The translations under genes were made by a program, and so were the position numbers. A stretch of 64,000 bases of DNA, taken from the IMG/VR virus record IMGVR_UViG_3300021135_000011, positions 1,213 through 65,212 of that record; one strand, written 5' to 3'. Below, in pieces: positions 2,730-62,576 of the stretch (its first letter is position 1; each line of letters begins with the position of its first letter). The notes beneath the pieces are model-generated. The model saw only the letters and a list, made by a program, of their open reading frames with translations. It was not told the DNA's origin and ran no database searches. Origin of the DNA: a virus. Taxonomy: Duplodnaviria > Caudoviricetes.

Positions 2730-2929
2730 AGTTTTCTATTTTTTATTTCTTCCTGTAATCGTTTTTCATCACGTACTCTTTTTTCATATTCTTGAAGACA
2801 TGCTGCACAACATTGCATACCATTTGTTGCAACTCTTTTTTGGCAGCTACAACTTAAAGACCTTTGACAGTTGGTGCACTTTTCCATATTATTATTGGTT
2901 TGGTTTATTTTTAATGACAAGTATGACAA
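2726..2929 (-). CDS. Small Cys-rich (Zn-binding-like) protein; probable start at MEKC
   Basis: CxxC...CxC...CCxxC; AAACCAAACCAA leader precedes the internal Met. Confidence 0.6.
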   Translation of the reverse strand: MSYLSLKINQTNNNMEKCTNCQRSLSCSCQKRVATNGMQCCAACLQEYEKRVRDEKRLQEEIKNRKL

Positions 2930-3465
2930 CCCCGACTTAAATCATTTAATTTTCTTTCAGCCAGACGATACATTTGTATTCCATCTGTAGGATTATTTTT
3001 ATCTTCAACTAAAAATTTTGCAGTTAATATTTGACTTTCTATTAATTGCATCTCTCTAATTAAAACTAATTTGTCATTTGTTGGATCGCAAGGTGTATCA
3101 TTTATCCAACATAATGTCTTTCTCCACCTCTCTTGTATAGCAACAATCCTTAACATGTTATACTCAACATAAACTAAAGAATTAGGACTAACAGAATATC
3201 TAAAGTGCCATATGCCGTCTGGAATATTTGGACATGTACTGCCACACCCTGTTTGTAACATACCTAATGTGCAAGCGTTTAAAAACAATCTAAATTGTTC
3301 AGATAAACCTGTATATACAGCAGGTGTTTGGTATCCTGGAGGAGTTATTTCTAAAGTTGGGCAATTAAATGGAATAGAAGAAGAGTAGATAGAACTATCC
3401 TCTACTCTAAGTATACCTAAGTTTGCATTCTCAGGAAAATCTAAAAACAATTGATGTCTATTCAC
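2911..3465 (-). CDS. Conserved crAss-like structural-module protein
   Basis: LEITPPGY, IPDGIWHFRYSVSPN motifs; own upstream promoter. Confidence 0.6.
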   Translation of the reverse strand: MNRHQLFLDFPENANLGILRVEDSSIYSSSIPFNCPTLEITPPGYQTPAVYTGLSEQFRLFLNACTLGMLQTGCGSTCPNIPDGIWHFRYSVSPNSLVYVEYNMLRIVAIQERWRKTLCWINDTPCDPTNDKLVLIREMQLIESQILTAKFLVEDKNNPTDGIQMYRLAERKLNDLSRGCHTCH

Positions 3466-3561: not shown

Positions 3562-4935
3562 TTAGAAATTTTCTAAGACAACTGTACTACCTGCTGCAGT
3601 TAAACAACCACCTATTAAGTTTGTAAAAGTTGTTGTAGTTGTACCTGTTGGTACATAGAATACAGCTTCCCATACACGGTTATTATCTGCGGGTTTAGGA
3701 TTAAACTGATCCTTATTTACATATCTGATATGTATTTCATCATATAGTGATTGAAGACTAACATTTACAAGAGTTACATCGTCTTCAATTTGACGCATCC
3801 TATAAAGATCAATTTCATAACCATCAGGGAAATTTTCCATCAGATACCTACGATAGGTAATCCATTCTCTAACAACCATTTGTCCAAGACCAGATACTTG
3901 CTGCACACTTTGTGTAGTAGCTACCATATTTGGAACAGATGTATTAATAGTTGTTGTAACTTGACACGGATCAGCACCTAAGCCATCATCCATTCTAAGA
4001 GATGCATAAATTAACAATGCATCAACATAGTAATAATCAGAAGGGGTAAATGTACAAGTATTAAATATTGTATCTACATATGCAGTTTGTAATTGTAAAG
4101 CTGCAGTTATTGTTGGTATTACTGTTCCACTTGTTGATGGTACATATGCACCACTTGCTACCGCTCCTGCACCTGCAGCTAAAGCTCCATAATAAGAACC
4201 CCCTACTACACCTGGTGCATTGATAGAAACATCATATGCAGAGAATACCTGAACAATACTTCCTGGAGCAATTGTATAAACTCCCGAACCTGCACCACCT
4301 GTAAGACTTGCATTAATAAATACTGCAGGATAGAACATTGTAGACAAGATTGGGTCTTGTTTTATAAAGTCTGACCATTGTAGCATAACAGTTGTCGGGT
4401 CTACTAATTGACCTGTACAACCTGATTGGCAATTCCCATTGCAACAACCTGTCCAAGCTTCAACATCACGATATACTTCATGTCCAAATACACGCAAGGC
4501 AGCCTCACCTTTAGCTTCCAAAAGAAGTCTATAAAACGTACCACATTGGAATGTAGGTCCAACTCCTTCGGTAGAGCCAGATACTGTTTGATTCCACCCA
4601 ACTGTAATTACCATTGGTAATGCAGTTTTTGCAGTTTTTTTCCAAAACCTTTGTATACCTAATACAGGTATTGTATGTGTCTTATCTGACATCTTATAAC
4701 CACCCATACCAGGAGCTATATTCTGTACTGTATGGTAAGATCCTGCGCCAATAAGTATTTGACCTGCAACACCGGTAGATATTGAAGTTCCTATAATACT
4801 ATTAGTTACAGGGAATACACCGATTCCACCTGCTGTAAGTGAAGTAGTGGTTGTTCCTGAACCAGCAAGAACCATTGTACCTCCTGACACTGCAGGAAGA
4901 AAAACCTCTCTAAAAGAACGAGTTTGGTAAGACAT
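3562..4935 (-). CDS. Putative auxiliary capsid/structural protein
   Basis: 457 aa, G/T/V-rich, WTGCC motif; downstream of MCP in crAss-like gene order; has its own terminator. Confidence 0.6.
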   Translation of the reverse strand: MSYQTRSFREVFLPAVSGGTMVLAGSGTTTTSLTAGGIGVFPVTNSIIGTSISTGVAGQILIGAGSYHTVQNIAPGMGGYKMSDKTHTIPVLGIQRFWKKTAKTALPMVITVGWNQTVSGSTEGVGPTFQCGTFYRLLLEAKGEAALRVFGHEVYRDVEAWTGCCNGNCQSGCTGQLVDPTTVMLQWSDFIKQDPILSTMFYPAVFINASLTGGAGSGVYTIAPGSIVQVFSAYDVSINAPGVVGGSYYGALAAGAGAVASGAYVPSTSGTVIPTITAALQLQTAYVDTIFNTCTFTPSDYYYVDALLIYASLRMDDGLGADPCQVTTTINTSVPNMVATTQSVQQVSGLGQMVVREWITYRRYLMENFPDGYEIDLYRMRQIEDDVTLVNVSLQSLYDEIHIRYVNKDQFNPKPADNNRVWEAVFYVPTGTTTTTFTNLIGGCLTAAGSTVVLENF

Positions 4936-4959
4936 GTTTATTTATTTTTTATTTATTGT

Positions 4960-5664
4960 TTAAGTATTATGTTGTTCTGCCTGATTTAGTCGTTGCATAT
5001 TTTGTTGCATATCTAAATCTCCAGATATTATAGCTGCGGCATCATCTATTATAAGTTCTATAACTGAATCTCTAAATTCACACAAAACATCTGATGTAGA
5101 GGTTAGACCTGTTTCTGTATCTGTACAACCATTAAATTGAACAGTTATAGGTTTTCTATAATAGATTACTTCAGGATTTATTATTTCAAATTTTTCTTCT
5201 GTATATATTCTTACTTTATTTCCAAAAAATGTAGAAAATGTTTCTGCCCATTTCCAACTGGGATTTTTGTTAGGGTCTTTAAGTAAAATGTCTACATCAG
5301 ATTCCTCAGCTTGATAAATTGTTAATCTTCTTGGCGGGCAACATTCATCTTTTTTAGCAAATGCAGATACTCTTGCAAAAACTATATAATCTGAAGGAAA
5401 ATCACAGGACTCATAAAATAAATGTCTATTTACAAATCCATCTTTCCATGTAACTAGTAGATTCTGTAAATCTGCAATAACTTGTGAATCGCCTTCACGA
5501 CCAACTCTTTTTTGATTTATTGCGTTTACTTGTCTACGAACCCACTCTCTTTGAGCCTTATTAAAAGCTTCTTGTATCTGCCAGCAAGGGATGTTGTCAA
5601 AATCTTCACTATCTAATTTGTTGACCCTTTGCTTTACTTTTAATTGTAGTAATGCATTATTCAT
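4960..5664 (-). CDS. Putative head-tail ring/adaptor protein
   Basis: VNKLDS...FNKAQREW, YYRKP, ELIIDDAAAI motifs typical of crAss-like ring proteins near MCP. Confidence 0.6.
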   Translation of the reverse strand: MNNALLQLKVKQRVNKLDSEDFDNIPCWQIQEAFNKAQREWVRRQVNAINQKRVGREGDSQVIADLQNLLVTWKDGFVNRHLFYESCDFPSDYIVFARVSAFAKKDECCPPRRLTIYQAEESDVDILLKDPNKNPSWKWAETFSTFFGNKVRIYTEEKFEIINPEVIYYRKPITVQFNGCTDTETGLTSTSDVLCEFRDSVIELIIDDAAAIISGDLDMQQNMQRLNQAEQHNT

Positions 5665-26777: not shown

Positions 26778-26848
26778 TAGTCCTGCATGGAATCAAACCA
26801 CAATTAAAGGCTCCAAAAACCATTGTCTTATCATTAGACCACAGGACT
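26778..26848 (-). tRNA. tRNA-Gln(UUG), degenerate
   Basis: Acceptor AGTCCTG/CAGGACT, D-stem GTCT/AGAC, anticodon loop TTTTGGA (stem has a T-T mismatch), T-arm TGTGG-TTTGATT-CCATG; no encoded CCA. Confidence 0.75.
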
Positions 26849-44143: not shown

Positions 44144-44188
44144 TAAAAATAAATTAGTCAAAATATAAAATATTTTGTATTTTTGCTA

Positions 44189-44632
44189 ATGAATAAAAAA
44201 TTAAAACAATGTACTGAATGCAAGAAAGATGTAATTTATTATAAAAATAAGTTATGTCTTTCTTGCTTTAAAAAATTAAATCCAGAAAAATTTTTGATTA
44301 AAAAAAGTGTTTTAAAACACAAAAGCCCCCCTAAAACAACTATCAAGAAAACACCTTTAAAAAAATCTCAAAAGGCAATATCAAAATTTAGTCAAAAACA
44401 AATAGGTAGACAAAAACAATATCAAAAACTAAGATTGGAGCTATTAGAAAAATTTCCTATATGTACTATATGTAATAAAAATCCAGCAACAGAAATTCAC
44501 CATGCTCGCGGCAGAGGTCTTTTTTTGCTAGAGCATCTGATTCCTACTTGTCGCCCATGCCATTTATGGTGTCACCAAAATGTTGAAGAAGCAACAAAAT
44601 TAGGTTATATAATTTCTAGAATTAAGAACTAG
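44189..44632 (+). CDS. HNH endonuclease with N-terminal Zn finger
   Basis: CTIC..ATEIHHARGR...TCRPCHLWCH; upstream -7 element TATTTTTG. Confidence 0.8.
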   Translation: MNKKLKQCTECKKDVIYYKNKLCLSCFKKLNPEKFLIKKSVLKHKSPPKTTIKKTPLKKSQKAISKFSQKQIGRQKQYQKLRLELLEKFPICTICNKNPATEIHHARGRGLFLLEHLIPTCRPCHLWCHQNVEEATKLGYIISRIKN

Positions 44633-46437: not shown

Positions 46438-48396
46438 ATGAGAGAAGGAAATAGTAATGTGAAGGAATTTGATATAGAGGTGTTTCCTAATTATTTTGAA
46501 GTAGGAATAAAGGATTTTAGAACTAAAGAAGTCATAAATTTAGAAATATCAGAAGAGTTTGATGATAGACAAAAGATTTATGATTTCTTTAGTAAATATA
46601 AAGGATTTTTAATATCTTTTAATGGAATACATTATGATGAAGTAATTATTAAGTATTTTTTAAAAGATTGGCAAAAACTTAAAAATCTTAAAAAAGAAGA
46701 TTTATTACAAAGAATAAAAATTTGTTCTGATAAAGTAATAAATACAGATTTAAATAGAGATTTTTTAAAATCTTATATATACTTTAAAACTAATTGGATT
46801 TCTATAGATTTGTATTTATTTTGGGCAAAAATGTTGCGTATTTCTAAAAAAATTAGTTTAAAATCATTAGGAATACAAATGAATTATCCTGTAGTAATGG
46901 AACTTCCATATAATCCAGAAACTATTTTAAATTTAGAACAAATAAGACAAGTTAGAGAATATAATAATATTCATGATTTAGGAATTTTAGATTTATTAGC
47001 TGAAAAACAAAAAGGAGAAATTACTTTACGAAAAAATATTTGGAAAGATACAGGTATTCAATGTATGTCTTATGATGCAATAAAAATTGCTTCTGAATCT
47101 CTTTTAGAAGATTATTGTAAAGAAAAATGGAATAATGGAGAAGTTTCTAATATGTCCGAAGGATATGAAACATTTGTAAAAAATACAAGATATTTGCGAT
47201 TTGATAAACCTACGATATATATTAAAGAAATTTTACATGATTTTAATCCTAATTTTAAATTACCTGTTTTTCAAAAATTATATGAACGTATTTTAAATTC
47301 AGTAAATGAATTTTCAGAAGAAGTTCCTATAATAGAGAAAAACACAACAATTAGATTGTCTTATGGTATAGGAGGATTACATAGTGTAAATGAAAATGAA
47401 TTGTATGATACTACTTCTACTCATAAAATAATGACTTCTGATGTTGCTTCACTATATCCAAATTTAATTATAAATTATAGATGTATTAGATTTCCTGAAG
47501 TTTTACGCAGATATACTTCTATTAAAGACGAGAGAATTATTGCCAAGAAAGCTCGGCAAAAAGCCAAAGATATCTTTTTTAAATTAATTTTAAATGGGGT
47601 AAGTGGTTTATTAGATCAACAACATTCATGGCTTTATTTTCCAGAAGGCGCATTAAGATTAAGACTAATTGGACAATTAATTCTTACAAAAGCAGTTGAA
47701 TTATGTATTTTAAATAATTGGCAGGTAATATCGGTAAATACAGATGGTATTGAAGCTATTGTACCTGTGAATGAACAAAAAAAATACAAAGAGGTTTTTA
47801 AAGAGATTGAAGAACAATTTAATCTTAATTTTGAACATGAAGAATATAAGTTTATTTATTATAAGAATGTAAATAACTATATTGCTTTAACTGAAAAAAA
47901 TAAGGCAAAACGAAAAGGATTATTTAAACTTTTAAAAGATGAAGAAGGAAAAGATGAAATACCTTTAGGAGATTCAACTAATGAAACAGTTATTGCAGAA
48001 GCGTTGAATAATTTTTTTGTAAAAGGCATTCCAATAGAAGAAACTATAACAAATCCTAACAAATTTAATTTTAATATATTTCATTATACTTGTGCTAAGA
48101 AAATTAGTAAAGATTATGGTGTTTATTATGAAAATGAACAAATTCAGAATTTAAATAGATATTATTTTTCTAGACCCGCAGCGTATCTTTTAAAAAAGAA
48201 AAAAAGTAGTGCAAAAAAATATAAAGCTACTGCAACTTTTGAACATGTAAATGCAAGTAATCCTGTATTATTATATAATAATCATAAAGAAAAATGTTGG
48301 GAAGAATATAAAATTGATTATTCACATTATATTGCAGATACACGAAAAATTATACAGGAGATGCAAGCACCTAAAATGCAATTAAGTTTATTTTAA
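46438..48396 (+). CDS. polB: Family B DNA polymerase
   Basis: ExoI FDIEVFPN, ExoII FNGIHYD, motif A DVASLYPN, B KLILNGVSG, C NTDG. Confidence 0.93.
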   Translation: MREGNSNVKEFDIEVFPNYFEVGIKDFRTKEVINLEISEEFDDRQKIYDFFSKYKGFLISFNGIHYDEVIIKYFLKDWQKLKNLKKEDLLQRIKICSDKVINTDLNRDFLKSYIYFKTNWISIDLYLFWAKMLRISKKISLKSLGIQMNYPVVMELPYNPETILNLEQIRQVREYNNIHDLGILDLLAEKQKGEITLRKNIWKDTGIQCMSYDAIKIASESLLEDYCKEKWNNGEVSNMSEGYETFVKNTRYLRFDKPTIYIKEILHDFNPNFKLPVFQKLYERILNSVNEFSEEVPIIEKNTTIRLSYGIGGLHSVNENELYDTTSTHKIMTSDVASLYPNLIINYRCIRFPEVLRRYTSIKDERIIAKKARQKAKDIFFKLILNGVSGLLDQQHSWLYFPEGALRLRLIGQLILTKAVELCILNNWQVISVNTDGIEAIVPVNEQKKYKEVFKEIEEQFNLNFEHEEYKFIYYKNVNNYIALTEKNKAKRKGLFKLLKDEEGKDEIPLGDSTNETVIAEALNNFFVKGIPIEETITNPNKFNFNIFHYTCAKKISKDYGVYYENEQIQNLNRYYFSRPAAYLLKKKKSSAKKYKATATFEHVNASNPVLLYNNHKEKCWEEYKIDYSHYIADTRKIIQEMQAPKMQLSLF

Positions 48397-58527: not shown

Positions 58528-59724
58528 ATGAGCACAACACAACAACAAATAAAGGTATATGACAATGTAATAATAAAACCAACAGGCACACTATTTTCAC
58601 AGATGTCTTCAGAAATGAATCTATTTAGAACTAAAAAGATTTATGGTATAGTGTTGTCTGCAATTTGCCCGGTAGGTATGGCAGGTTATAACTCTACTAA
58701 TTGGTCAATTTCGGTGCAATTTCTAAAAGATAGCAACTACCAAAAAACCTATAATGTTAAGCAGGCAGATTTAGAAATTGTTTCTACTAAAGACCTAGAA
58801 AAACTAAAAAAGATTACTGAAGAGTATTTAAAAGACTTTGGTAAAAAAGATGAAGGCTTAATATCCGCATTAAAAACACCTGCAAAAGGTGATTATTCTA
58901 AAATAGATGTAAATGCAAATTTGTTTGAAAAATTTAATAAAATTTTATTAACAAATAGAGTATTTGCTTGTAAAACACAAATAGATTGGAAAACAGGTAA
59001 ACATAATTCAGATTGGACTTCTGTAGAAGGTAAACAAGATTGCGGATGGTATGCATGTTGCTGTGATTATCTAAAAACAACAAAAGATGTAATATTTTAT
59101 ATACCTGAGTATTATTTAAATTTATATGGTTATACTGTTTATGATTTACATAAATGGTTGCAGTTTTTAGAAAATTGTCAAATAGATTTTAATTATATAT
59201 TAGAAGGTGAGTGTACATTTCCCGAACAGTATAAGTATAGATTAAGTGATACGGAAAGACACTCTAAAGAACCTTATAGTTTATATTTACACACAAATGA
59301 AATAAGGCCAAATTTAAATACAAAGTTTATTGAAATAAAAATGAAAAATCCTGGTGCAGCTTGGCATAACCATTTACATGTAATTTGTCTTAGGTATATA
59401 CATAGTCAATGGCATTGGTTTATTCCTGCTTTAGCTATGCAAATAAAAGATGCATTAGGTAAAAAAGTTTCTAATTGGGAAGCTTTAATGATGGCGCATT
59501 TTCACAAAGATATGTTACAAACTAATGATAGATCTTTAACGTATCGCAATAAATTTCACAATTGCTTTGTTTCACCAAAAACTATTGTAACAAACATAAT
59601 AAGTAATAGTTCAATGCAAAGAAGTTTTGTATATATTGAATCAAGAAATAAAGATTTGCCAAAATGCCAAGAATTTATAGAAAAAAAAGATTTTGAAGGT
59701 TTATATAATTTTATAAAAAAATAA
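58528..59724 (+). CDS. Hypothetical protein of the ligase cluster
   Basis: ORF track (probable start MSTT); YACCCDY, CLRY. Confidence 0.6.
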   Translation: MSTTQQQIKVYDNVIIKPTGTLFSQMSSEMNLFRTKKIYGIVLSAICPVGMAGYNSTNWSISVQFLKDSNYQKTYNVKQADLEIVSTKDLEKLKKITEEYLKDFGKKDEGLISALKTPAKGDYSKIDVNANLFEKFNKILLTNRVFACKTQIDWKTGKHNSDWTSVEGKQDCGWYACCCDYLKTTKDVIFYIPEYYLNLYGYTVYDLHKWLQFLENCQIDFNYILEGECTFPEQYKYRLSDTERHSKEPYSLYLHTNEIRPNLNTKFIEIKMKNPGAAWHNHLHVICLRYIHSQWHWFIPALAMQIKDALGKKVSNWEALMMAHFHKDMLQTNDRSLTYRNKFHNCFVSPKTIVTNIISNSSMQRSFVYIESRNKDLPKCQEFIEKKDFEGLYNFIKK

Positions 59725-59725
59725 T

Positions 59726-60328
59726 ATGGAAGTTTTAGAAAGACAACAAATTAAAAATTATACACTTGGTAGCGATGTAGAATATTTTTTACAAGATAAA
59801 AATACTGAAGCAATAGTAACTGCTGAAGGAAAAATAAAAGGTACAAAGCATGAACCATTTCGATTTGATGCAGAAAATAAATATTTTGCAACTAGTTTAG
59901 ATTGTGTTTTAGCTGAAGGTAATATCCCACCTTGTAAAACACCAGGAGAATTCTATTTAGCAATTCAGAAACTTCTAAGATATATTAATGGAACTATTCC
60001 AAATCACTTAGAGGCAATAGCAATTCCTGCTGCAAGAATGGCAGAAGAAGAATTAGTTTCTGATACTGCAAAAGAGTACGGATGTATGCCTTCAATAAAC
60101 TGTTGGACACTTGCCGAAATTAGACCTATTCCAAGTGGTGATAACTGTCGCGCGGCAGGATTCCACATTCATATAGGATATGATGAACCAAATTCTAAAA
60201 TGAATTTGCAATTAATTAAAGCAATGGATTTATTTTTAGGAATACCAAGTGTTTTAATAGAACCAGAAAATGAAAGGAAGTCTGTAGGTTATGGTTGCGC
60301 TGGAAATTTTAGGGAGTGCCACTATGGT
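59726..60328 (+). CDS. phiEco32-like COOH-NH2 ligase type 2, exon 1
   Basis: LGSDVEYF, KGTKHEP, AEGNIPP, GCMPS, RAAGFHIHIGY, MDLFLG, YGCAGNFRECHYG. Confidence 0.88.
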
Positions 60329-60378
60329 AGAGAAATAAAAAACACATATAGTTTAAATTAGTAGTTTTTATTGATTAA

Positions 60379-60410
60379 TTTGGTAAATTCAAAAAGTTTT
60401 TGTATATTTT
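60379..60410 (+). promoter_or_regulatory. Intron-internal promoter TTTG-N20-TATATTTT
   Basis: tttg 60379-60382, tatatttt 60403-60410, upstream of the LAGLIDADG ATG. Confidence 0.7.
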
Positions 60411-60433
60411 ATTATACATAGACTTTTAACCGA

Positions 60434-61354
60434 ATGATTAAGAAAGAAATATTAAATAGAGTAGTAGAATTACACGAAAAAGGACTAATTGATACAGAAA
60501 TTGCAAAACAAATAGGAAAGAGTCCCGATACAGTTGCATATTATAGAAAAAAATTAAATATTGAAAGTAATTTTCGATTAAATCATCCAAATATTGATGA
60601 GTTTATACTTGAAGATTTAAATAATAAACTTTCAACTTATGCAATTTGTAAGAAACACCAAATAAGTTCTTGTTATGTACGTAGAGTTGCAAGAGATAAT
60701 GATATACAACCCTTTAAGCAATATCTAAACCAAAATCGAAGATTTGTTAAAAATAATCCATTTGAAGATCTATCTAATCCAGAAGTTCAATATTGGTTAG
60801 GTATGTTGGCTGCTGACGGAACAATTTCTGGAACAAGACTTACTTTAGGGTTAAAAGAACAAGATAAAACTCACATAGAGAAATTTATCAAATTTTTAGG
60901 TGGTAAAGTAAAAATAAGAAAAACCTGTAAAGATGAAAAATATTATTCTTACACATGTTCTTTTAGAAATAAAGAAGTGATTGATTTTTTAGAAAAATTA
61001 GGTATTATAGCAAACAAAAGCTTAACACTTGACTATAAGGGAGAAATTACTTTAGATTTTTTAAGGGGAATAATAGATGGGGATGGATATATTAGAAAAA
61101 AAAGTCTTGATGAAATATCAATATTAACAGGTTCAAAATTATTTGCAAATCAATTAGTAACGGCTATTAAAAAATTATTTAATATAGAAGCAAAACTATA
61201 TATTCGTATGTTTAAAAACGAAATGTATTATGTGGCTATATTAGGTAAAAAACGTGTACCAAAAATACTTGATGAATTATATTTAAACGCTTGTATTTTT
61301 TTAGATAGAAAATACAATAATGCCATACTCGATAGAAATATTGAGAAAAAATAA
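60434..61354 (+). CDS. LAGLIDADG homing endonuclease with N-terminal HTH
   Basis: YWLGMLAADG and FLRGIIDGDG; GLIDTEIAKQIG. Confidence 0.93.
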   Translation: MIKKEILNRVVELHEKGLIDTEIAKQIGKSPDTVAYYRKKLNIESNFRLNHPNIDEFILEDLNNKLSTYAICKKHQISSCYVRRVARDNDIQPFKQYLNQNRRFVKNNPFEDLSNPEVQYWLGMLAADGTISGTRLTLGLKEQDKTHIEKFIKFLGGKVKIRKTCKDEKYYSYTCSFRNKEVIDFLEKLGIIANKSLTLDYKGEITLDFLRGIIDGDGYIRKKSLDEISILTGSKLFANQLVTAIKKLFNIEAKLYIRMFKNEMYYVAILGKKRVPKILDELYLNACIFLDRKYNNAILDRNIEKK

Positions 61355-61549
61355 CACTTTAAATTCAGGGAACCAGCGTTGGGAATCCTGAGCGAAATCC
61401 ATTAAGTAGATGAAAACCTAGACCAGAAAAAATGTGGGGTCTAGGTTTTTTGATTTTATTTATAAGGAGACGTGCAACGACTATAATAAGTGCATCTTAA
61501 CGTAAAGACGAAGATGAAGGGATAGTCTGGCTAGCAGAGAAGCTAGAGG

Positions 61550-61762
61550 GTAGAGTACAGGAGTTTGTCTTCTCATTTTGCCTCCACCCAAGAACTTATT
61601 GAATGGTCTTTTAGAAATACAGAGGCGGCAATTCAATTTGTAAACGAAGGAAGAATAGAAGAAATAGAAAACTTTGGAGATGAAATCCAACACATAATTA
61701 ATAATACAGATAAAGAATTAGCCCAGCAATGGGTAGATAGGTTTAAAATAGAAATGCCATGA
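61550..61762 (+). CDS. COOH-NH2 ligase type 2, exon 2
   Basis: GTA GAG TAC AGG = VEYRSLSSHF; restores YG-VEYR; spliced product 271 aa. Confidence 0.88.
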   Translation, partial: VEYRSLSSHFASTQELIEWSFRNTEAAIQFVNEGRIEEIENFGDEIQHIINNTDKELAQQWVDRFKIEMP

Positions 61763-61971
61763 ATAAAACAATAAAAATGTTAAGTCATTATAGAAAAATA
61801 TTAGCTCCAATTCTTGGAGTAAAGGAAGAGGCAATTATTTTTTTATCTAATAATAAAGAAATTGGAGAAACAATAGAATATGCTAAAGAACATATAACTA
61901 CTACTTGGAATTTAGGAGATTATAAAGTAATTGTAAGAAAAAATAAAACAACATTATGCAGAAAAAGATAA
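61759..61971 (+). CDS. Hypothetical protein
   Basis: ORF track, coupled. Confidence 0.5.
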   Translation: MNKTIKMLSHYRKILAPILGVKEEAIIFLSNNKEIGETIEYAKEHITTTWNLGDYKVIVRKNKTTLCRKR

Positions 61972-62576
61972 GAAAAATATATTGTGTTAGAGGCAGTTCA
62001 GGATATGCTCGTTGGATGCAAGGAGAAATAGTAAAAAATATGGAAGAAGCAGATTTAGTAGTATTACCAGGAGGTAGTGATGTGCCAACTAAGTATTATG
62101 CAAAATCTACACATCCTTCAACATGGGGATTTAGTTCTGGAGAAGAAGAATATAACGAAATACAAAAAGCACTAAGTCTTGGTAAAAAGATTTGGGGGAC
62201 TTGTAAGGGCCTTCAATGGTCGTCGGTAATTTCAGGCGGCTCGCTGATTCAAGATTTAAATCACCCCGGATCACATAAAATCACTACGGAAGATGGTAAA
62301 ACGTTGATAGTCAATTCGTTGCATCATCAGGCAGTATATCCTTTTGATTTACCAAAAGATGAATACAGAATTATTGGTTGGGCAGAAAATTTATCACCAC
62401 ATCATCAAGATGGAGATTGTAAGGAAATGGAAGTATCTGTTGAACCTGAAATCGTATATTTTCCAAAAACAAAAATGTTAGGGACGCAATTTCACTGCGA
62501 ACTAATGTCAGAAACTCACCCAACAGTACAATATTGCCAAGATTTATTAGATAGATTCATGGAAGATAAATTATGA
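61956..62576 (+). CDS. Class I glutamine amidotransferase / peptidase C26
   Basis: LPGGSDV, GTCKGLQ, VNSLHHQ, QFHCE (Cys-His-Glu triad). Confidence 0.9.
   Translation: MQKKIRKIYCVRGSSGYARWMQGEIVKNMEEADLVVLPGGSDVPTKYYAKSTHPSTWGFSSGEEEYNEIQKALSLGKKIWGTCKGLQWSSVISGGSLIQDLNHPGSHKITTEDGKTLIVNSLHHQAVYPFDLPKDEYRIIGWAENLSPHHQDGDCKEMEVSVEPEIVYFPKTKMLGTQFHCELMSETHPTVQYCQDLLDRFMEDKL

Follow-up and report, generated by a model that had tools for sequence, protein, structure and literature searches.

Phage group I introns mostly target genes for nucleotide metabolism, polymerases, terminases, or lysins, and the review PMC3984707, where it treats phage introns, names polymerases, reductases, and terminases as their usual targets. 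In the same treatment, intron open reading frames (ORFs) usually lie in loops, those reaching into the core are tightly controlled to spare splicing, and an in-frame stop commonly follows the 5′ splice site. A layout of particular interest here is that of the group I intron in the tRNA-fMet gene of Synechocystis PCC 6803, whose endonuclease lies in P1 and whose ORF overlaps P1/P2 by 61 nucleotides (nt) according to Table 1 of PMC3073962. Here, we analyze a 64,000-nt stretch of phage DNA (the window; positions 1213 to 65212 of the 65-kb virus record IMGVR_UViG_3300021135_000011, CheckV completeness estimate of 54%), in which positions 60329 to 61549 very probably constitute a mobile group I intron within a PF14395 carboxylate-amine ligase gene, with self-splicing and homing predicted from sequence.

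The window intron resembles the Synechocystis intron in its P1 insertion and P1/P2 overlap (overlap of 33 nt in the window; range in the family described below, 24 to about 99 nt). The likeness is one of layout: the Synechocystis host gene is a bacterial tRNA gene and its enzyme a PD-(D/E)XK endonuclease, whereas here a LAGLIDADG enzyme is encoded within a phage protein gene (comparison drawn from the entry in PMC3073962). With the td intron of phage T4, which encodes I-TevI, the window intron shares a protein-coding phage host gene, an ORF whose 3′ end is part of the ribozyme, and a probable need to restrain endonuclease translation for splicing; in contrast, the td ORF lies in P6 and overlaps P6a/P7, its product is a GIY-YIG endonuclease, and its host gene encodes thymidylate synthase (as outlined in PMC3073962 and PMC3984707). 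LAGLIDADG motifs in the P1 loop are also described for the fungal mitochondrial cox3-i2 intron, in an organellar host (account in PMC4964425), and the Physarum ribosomal DNA intron is tabulated with a His-Cys box gene in P1, but in a nuclear host and with no core overlap (PMC3073962 Table 1). Phage introns in DNA polymerase, ribonucleotide reductase, and terminase genes are likewise mobile group I introns at conserved-motif codons of conserved protein genes, but the host gene in the window is an amidoligase gene, which does not appear among those listed in that review's treatment (PMC3984707). Our literature searches on P1-loop, L1-loop, and P1-stem endonucleases returned mitochondrial cases and reviews and no phage case in print, and our searches on the host gene found no paper describing an intron in an amidoligase or COOH-NH2 ligase gene. 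The layout, an endonuclease in P1 overlapping P1/P2, is already known; the host gene and the intron family are new. A first-pass annotation of the locus, made from the letters alone, had called the host gene unusual, which stands with respect to the literature but is tempered by the occupation of the same site in three more metagenome alleles.

The interrupted ligase gene and its predicted splice junction

The ORF at 59726 to 60361 (211 amino acids [aa]) matches PF14395, the phiEco32-like COOH-NH2 ligase type 2 profile, at 31.1 bits (cut-off, 25), a score obtained with exon 1 alone, and the exon 1 product matches phrog_3815, annotated "COOH.NH2 ligase" (E = 6e-33). Exon 1 terminates in CAC TAT GGT at 60328, and the sequence following G61549, GTA GAG TAC AGG AGT TTG (VEYRSL), is in frame with it. 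The intervening segment is 1221 nt long, a multiple of 3, and interrupts the gene in phase 0. Joining 60328 to 61550 (predicted ligated-exon junction, CACTATGGT-GTAGAGTAC) yields a 271-aa protein. To the 83 database proteins returned by the exon 1 search belongs the window's own 211-aa call; when the other 82 were compared at the junction, 80 aligned without a gap across HYG-VEYRSLS (here and below, the hyphen marks the splice junction). The two exceptions, P0008 and P0041, end exactly at the same Gly as exon 1 of the window, and P0008 continues after it with KEIKNTYS, which resembles the intron-encoded REIKNTYS of the window; both look like further intron-occupied alleles.

The junction falls at a highly conserved position. 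E203 and R205, one and three codons past it, are invariant in 32/32 aligned homologues. As a stand-in for the spliced protein of the window, the uninterrupted homologue P0002 (65% identical to the window ligase) was used for fold prediction and structure search. Its predicted fold has a predicted local distance difference test (pLDDT) score of 95.5, places the junction within a β-strand (residues 201 to 204), and matches the folds of glutamate-cysteine ligase, glutamine synthetase, and YbdK (Foldseek matches including 2gwc at E = 5.8e-5 and 1r8g [YbdK] at a template modeling [TM] score of 0.52). The ligase profile had no match below E = 0.1 among PDB sequences. By family resemblance, as distinct from residue-by-residue mapping, the Glu and Arg after the junction may be catalytic.

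The first-pass annotation had placed the 5′ splice site after TATGGT at 60328, with its guide sequence GCCATA about 1 kb away at 61322, and the 3′ splice site between G61549 and GTA, so as to restore HYG-VEYRSLS; it had also supposed the ligase motif to be conserved and important. Every coordinate given there holds, the junction is borne out by the gap-free colinearity with uninterrupted homologues, and the two invariant residues bear out the supposition about the motif.

Ribozyme core and a family of related introns

An Rfam search of 311 nt (61290 to 61600) matched RF00028, the group I intron family, at 61315 to 61547 (51.9 bits; cut-off, 50; E = 1.3e-12). The minimum-energy fold of the core has a z score of −4.9, with 0/200 shuffles folding as well, and the unconstrained fold includes P2, P4, P5, P6 with a long extension, P7, P8, and P9 (Table 1). 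Between TATGGT and GCCATA all six positions pair, and U60328.G61322 forms a wobble pair at the 5′ splice site. At 0 to 2 nt, J3/8 is too short to accommodate P7.1/P7.2, and P5 has 3 bp; together these features presumably argue against subgroup IA.

Six distinct relatives of this intron were identified. A search of viral contigs with a 17-nt core word returned four intron loci and one chance match in a coding region, and a search of metagenome contigs with a 22-nt pattern returned six loci; duplicates were then merged (L002 = L006; L009 = L004 and L010; L001 = L003 and L012; L007; L008; L011). L002 (NG-IEYRTL), L009 (YG-VEYRTL), and L011 (HG-MEYRSL) interrupt PF14395 ligase genes at the same site as in the window, and L001 (YSG-MELRI) and L007 (FSG-MELRL) interrupt DNA polymerase A genes. 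The remaining relative, L008, lies in a gene whose second exon weakly matches Amidoligase_2 (21.7 bits; cut-off, 22). L001 was originally reached via its endonuclease, 42% identical to that of the window, and positions 30 to 160 and 162 to 303 of the DNA_pol_A Pfam profile abut at its junction.

Covariation across the seven introns supports a common structure. RNAalifold on the seven cores recovered P2, P4, P5, P6, and P7, with double changes in 13/28 pairs. Because the MAFFT alignment misaligned P3, P8, and P9, helices were assigned by hand, with order and pairing checked by script. In the resulting helix table, all 16 strands stand in canonical order in 7/7 members and 278/283 positions pair, and the sequences of P2, P3, P8, and P9 vary among members while pairing persists (for P3, CACUU/AAGUG, GCGUC/GGCGC, GAACC/GGUUC, GUGUC/GGCAC, and AUCUUC/GGAGAU). 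L2 is a GNRA loop in 7/7, capping covarying P2 stems, and J4/5 (AA), L5 (GCGU), and J5/4 (GAA) are invariant. When each core was folded separately and without constraint, P4, P5, and P8 were complete in 7/7, P9 in 6/7 (with 4/5 pairs in the window), and P2 in 5/7 (partial in 2/7); P7 appeared in 5/7. R1, a covariance model derived from all seven members, found one site in the window, at 211 bits, and scored the related introns at 144 to 204 bits.

The ends of the introns are similarly constrained. GCC lies directly 5′ of P2 in 7/7 members (at most 1 to 2 nt of overlap), and the upstream exon ends in GGT in all of them. Within the guide sequence only GCC is invariant across the family, and the bases beside it shift with the exon (UAU/AUA in the window, GU/AC in L008, and AG/CU in L001). 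The first 13 to 15 nt of the intron are also conserved (GGT followed by AGAGAAATAAAAAAC and variants). The sequences themselves have diverged widely: the window ligase shares 37 to 57% identity with its counterparts in the other occupied alleles, the window endonuclease is 36 to 42% identical to those of the related introns, and the cores share 54 to 68% nucleotide identity over aligned columns. The association is therefore old and not the product of a recent sweep. Together with the Rfam match and the colinearity with uninterrupted homologues, the six related introns with covarying helices uphold the original assignment of this element to group I.

A P6 extension is present in 4/7 members (the window, L002, L009, and L008), and its 12-nt P6b cap loop, AGAAAAAAUGUG (61405 to 61450 in the window for the loop region), is kept in all four while the stem beneath differs in each. 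The alternative that P6b is a transcription terminator was rejected: the U run is unique to the window, the stem covaries as an intron helix, and the terminator scan did not call the hairpin.

R1 also picks up weaker, different introns within the loci. In L002, a second, ORF-less intron (2826 to 3050, − strand; R1, 31 bits) splits the same PF14395 ligase gene at its His-x-His motif (FRSCG-GHLHMAW), a site that is empty in the window. The L011 ligase gene contains, farther upstream, a second LAGLIDADG ORF (52 to 789, 246 aa) that directly precedes the HVHIGYE motif. This points to a further intron at that site, where R1 and Rfam gave no match. An ORF-less group I intron in L009 (2102 to 2354, − strand; RF00028, 71 bits; R1, 45 bits) sits at the 3′ end of the glutamine amidotransferase ORF, immediately before the ligase gene. 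The polA gene of L001 contains a second intron (4290 to 5145; R1, 34 bits at 4290 to 4466) followed by an HNH-like ORF (4516 to 5145). Other viral contigs with an uninterrupted ligase gene have weaker R1 matches (28 to 43 bits) upstream of it (L092, 1603 to 1753; L087, 1 to 139; L057, 1123 to 1251), which are probably further introns in neighboring genes.

Table 1. Features of the ligase-intron locus in the window, with predicted helices and splice sites
Feature	Position	Strand	Basis
Exon 1 of COOH-NH2 (amide) ligase gene, 201 codons	59726-60328	+	PF14395, phrog_3815, 83 database relatives
P1 5′ strand TATGGT, predicted 5′ splice site after U60328	60323-60328	+	pairs 6/6 with 61322-61327; exon end GGT opposite GCC in 7/7 family members
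L1, 993-nt loop of P1 with endonuclease gene; intron 5′ end AGAGAAATAAAAAAC conserved in relatives	60329-61321	+	no guide-sequence candidate in the 105 nt before the ORF (by eye)
TAG ending exon 1 reading frame, 10 codons inside intron	60359-60361	+	ORF 59726-60361
Conserved motif and small hairpin (TGTATA/TATACA), 20-40 nt upstream of endonuclease start	60393-60418	+	similar motif in L002, L011, and L008 remnant
Double-motif LAGLIDADG homing endonuclease gene, N-terminal helix-turn-helix, 306 aa	60434-61354	+	Pfam, phrog_4645
Internal guide sequence GCCATA (P1 3′ strand), within endonuclease codons Ala-Ile	61322-61327	+	GCC invariant 7/7
P2 hairpin CUCGAUA-GAAA-UAUUGAG	61328-61345	+	7/7 pairs; in unconstrained fold
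P3 5′ strand CACUU, partner 61488-61492	61355-61359	+	different complementary strand pair in each member
P4-P5 domain UCAGGG / AA / CCA-GCGU-UGG / GAA / UCCUGA	61365-61391	+	folds and family helix table
P6 plus long P6a/P6b extension, P6b loop AGAAAAAAUGUG	61398-61468	+	loop conserved, stem covaries in 4 long members
P7 5′ strand GACUAU, partner 61522-61527	61479-61484	+	Rfam match, RNAalifold, helix table
P3 3′ strand AAGUG	61488-61492	+	helix table
P8 hairpin AUCUU...AAGAU	61494-61515	+	outer helix sequence differs between members
P7 3′ strand AUAGUC	61522-61527	+	Rfam match, RNAalifold, helix table
P9 hairpin CUAGC-AGAGAA-GCUAG	61531-61546	+	covaries in all members
Terminal G of intron (omega G), predicted 3′ splice site after it	61549	+	G-ending in 7/7 family members
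Exon 2 of ligase gene, 70 codons plus stop, starts VEYRSLSSHFAS	61550-61762	+	colinear with homologues; E and R invariant
Class-I glutamine amidotransferase gene (amidoligase-GATase module)	61956-62576	+	Peptidase_C26, GATase, phrog_7218

The endonuclease gene in L1 and its overlap with the ribozyme

The endonuclease gene is the sole large ORF in the intron. Its product matches LAGLIDADG_1 (residues 135 to 198, E = 5.4e-5) and LAGLIDADG_3 (residues 207 to 281, E = 1.6e-11), as well as phrog_4645 over nearly its full length (E = 3.6e-38), and had no match at E <= 0.01 among PDB sequences. Both acidic residue-bearing motifs, one per domain, are present (LGMLAADG and LRGIIDGDG). The last 11 codons and stop of the ORF (61322 to 61354, 33 nt) coincide with the guide sequence, P2, and J2/3, and the stop codon, TAA at 61352 to 61354, adjoins P3.

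We place this ORF in the loop of P1 and not in L2 because P2 is a complete local hairpin directly after the guide sequence and because inspection by eye found no guide-sequence candidate in the 105 nt of intron that precede the ORF. The alternatives of an ORF in L2 and of a guide within those first 105 nt, where none fits, were rejected on these grounds. Both parts of the original proposal, an endonuclease gene in L1 and an ORF end that extends across the guide sequence and P2, are supported. Throughout the family (7/7), an endonuclease gene or its remnant lies between the conserved intron start and the guide sequence. Intact copies occur in three members (the window, L002, and L001); in the other four (L009, L011, L007, and L008) the gene has decayed through truncation, a frameshift, or a stop, or survives as a 74-aa remnant. 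The overlap of ORF and ribozyme ranges from 24 nt in L001 to about 93 to 99 nt in L002 and L009, in which the frame reaches P6. The "core creep" proposal, as put forward in PMC3073962, predicts such a variable 3′ extension of the ORF into the core, and the seven-member family, whose endonuclease stops range from P2 via the P3 border to P6, offers a natural test set for it.

These features fit a pathway in which the intron would be transcribed with the ligase gene and ribosomes on exon 1 would halt at the TAG 10 codons in. Once made, the guide sequence, about 1 kb downstream, would pair with the end of exon 1 to form P1, with U60328 opposite G61322, and the compact P2-P9 core would fold. An external guanosine would attack after U60328, and the freed exon would then attack after G61549. 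The ligated mRNA would encode the 271-aa ligase (...CHYG-VEYRSLS...), with the invariant Glu-x-Arg motif restored. The LAGLIDADG protein from the P1 loop is predicted to cut intron-less alleles around TATGGT-GTNGARTAYAG in mixed infection, and repair would copy the intron into them (homing).

The overlap has a further consequence for this pathway. Because the guide, P2, and J2/3 all fall within the final 33 nt of the ORF, completion of its translation and a splicing-competent fold would be mutually exclusive on one RNA: occupancy of 61322 to 61354 should preclude formation of P1 and P2. Competition between translation and splicing, for which there is precedent, is plausible. Probably, then, the endonuclease is translated either at a low level or from molecules not destined for imminent splicing, such as the excised intron or a separate transcript. 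Restraint of endonuclease translation for the sake of splicing has reportedly been documented by Gibb and Edgell in 2010, a study that PMC3984707 cites along with Ohman-Heden 1993.

The motif upstream of the endonuclease start, which reads AAAGTT..GTATATTT, may serve as an internal promoter or gate translation. We take it to resemble a Bacteroidota −7 box. A sigma-70 promoter scan of 59500 to 62000 found 10 promoter-like sites, compared with 14.5 ± 4.2 in shuffles, and gave no support for a promoter at 60393 to 60418.

Site occupancy, alternative explanations, and genomic context

At the intron site, the best 80 viral-contig relatives of the ligase are all uninterrupted (80/80), and 69 distinct empty sites give the consensus TATGGT-GTtGAATATAGA. 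This sporadic occupancy, together with the decayed endonuclease copies in four of the six relatives, is indirect evidence of mobility. Occupied alleles were seen in freshwater metagenome DNA runs, with contigs bridging both intron-exon borders in X16 and X18; a search of sequencing runs for the stretch returned no RNA run.

Several observations weigh against a functional, mobile intron. The RF00028 match is the only one and lies just 1.9 bits over the cut-off, and Rfam scans of 4 kb, of the whole window at the gathering threshold, and of the whole record returned no intron match. P10 in the window is at best 2 bp (by eye). The hand-made helix table leans toward structure by construction, and its P6 for L007 has an impossible 2-nt loop. 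P3 appeared in just 1/7 nested folds, as expected of a pseudoknot, since P3 and P7 exclude each other in such folds. In L002, L011, and L007, P1 is weak beyond GGU/GCC, with 3 to 4 of 6 positions pairing. Finally, the four DNA runs with partial word shares (X16 to X19) contained the intron-bearing form only and no intron-less joint.

The weak P10, the marginal Rfam score, and the decay of the endonuclease in relatives would all fit a reading in which the intron had itself decayed and no longer spliced, leaving the ligase gene a pseudogene or the source of the 211-aa truncated product alone. We regard this as improbable, given that helices P1 to P9 are all intact in the window, P1 pairs at 6/6 positions with the U.G pair and terminal G in place, the endonuclease ORF is intact, exon 2 has an open frame that retains the invariant E and R, and contigs from several metagenome runs carry this form too. 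Less probable still is a real intron with other splice sites, either with both shifted by 3 nt (exon end CACTAT, intron end G61546) or with a different guide sequence. The shifted exon would still end in U, the intron in G, and the frame would be kept; the product, however, would read HYR-VEYR, with Arg where most homologues have Gly, and the pairing with GCCATA would be lost. Relatives in three different genes, moreover, all end the exon with GGT opposite GCC, and the first 105 nt of the intron hold no candidate for another guide.

The locus could also be read without any RNA splicing, as a free-standing endonuclease gene between the halves of a split gene or as an intein. Intron-free splitting of phage genes by endonuclease genes does occur, and a free-standing HNH ORF is present elsewhere in the window. 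A covarying ribozyme core nevertheless lies directly between the ORF and exon 2, and exon 2 has no ATG of its own, the only listed start being a TTG at 61565, within the conserved motif region. An intein would have to be in frame with exon 1, from which the ORF is separated by a stop codon and 72 nt. We consider both versions highly implausible and retain a self-splicing group I intron, homing by means of its LAGLIDADG enzyme, as the most probable explanation of the locus.

Recognition of the intron changes how the gene is read. Automatic gene calling gives a 211-aa truncated ligase and orphan ORFs, whereas splicing would restore the full enzyme; the database entries P0001, P0008, and P0041 look like such truncated calls. 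Standard Rfam scans miss introns with a 1-kb P1 insert unless the core is searched alone. Amidoligase genes would join the hosts of phage group I introns, and the position of the intron, one codon before the invariant Glu-x-Arg, independently flags this motif as the most constrained DNA of the gene.

The three host sites (the PF14395 ligase, motif A of DNA polymerase A, and the Amidoligase_2-like gene) all have the form Gly(GGT)-x-Glu-(Tyr/Leu). The L011 ligase site, GGT-ATGGAATAC, and the L001 polA site, GGT-ATGGAACTC, match at 12/18 central nucleotides, a likeness across genes equally close to that among ligase alleles (11 to 15/18). The shared target and this cross-gene likeness suggest a route between genes, and we tentatively raise the possibility, which we consider doubtful, that the intron lineage hopped between unrelated genes via this short target. 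Ectopic spread could occur by reverse splicing, or through a tolerant endonuclease, into any conserved GGU-NNNGAA site. If so, the amidoligase modules of freshwater phages would be an intron hot spot, with further introns seen in and beside the same ligase gene.

The source of the window is an uncultured tailed freshwater phage that encodes terminase, portal, major head protein, PhoH, DNA polymerase A, primase, helicase, and Sak4. A blastn search of the locus against 50,697 phage records gave a single match of 132 nt, in exon only. The G+C content of the window is 29.2%. Shine-Dalgarno-like 4-mers occur at −20 to −4 in 3/57 long ORFs, compared with 4.8 ± 2.1 at random positions, and the host of the phage probably initiates translation without Shine-Dalgarno pairing. 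The DNA polymerase A gene of the window (46438 to 48396, 652 aa) is uninterrupted, while relatives of the ligase intron occupy polA in other phages (L001 and L007). The free-standing HNH endonuclease ORF (44183 to 44632, 149 aa) is flanked by a ParB-like gene and the polymerase region, and a tRNA gene at 26778 to 26848 (− strand; 53.1 bits) is the sole gathering-level Rfam match in the whole window.

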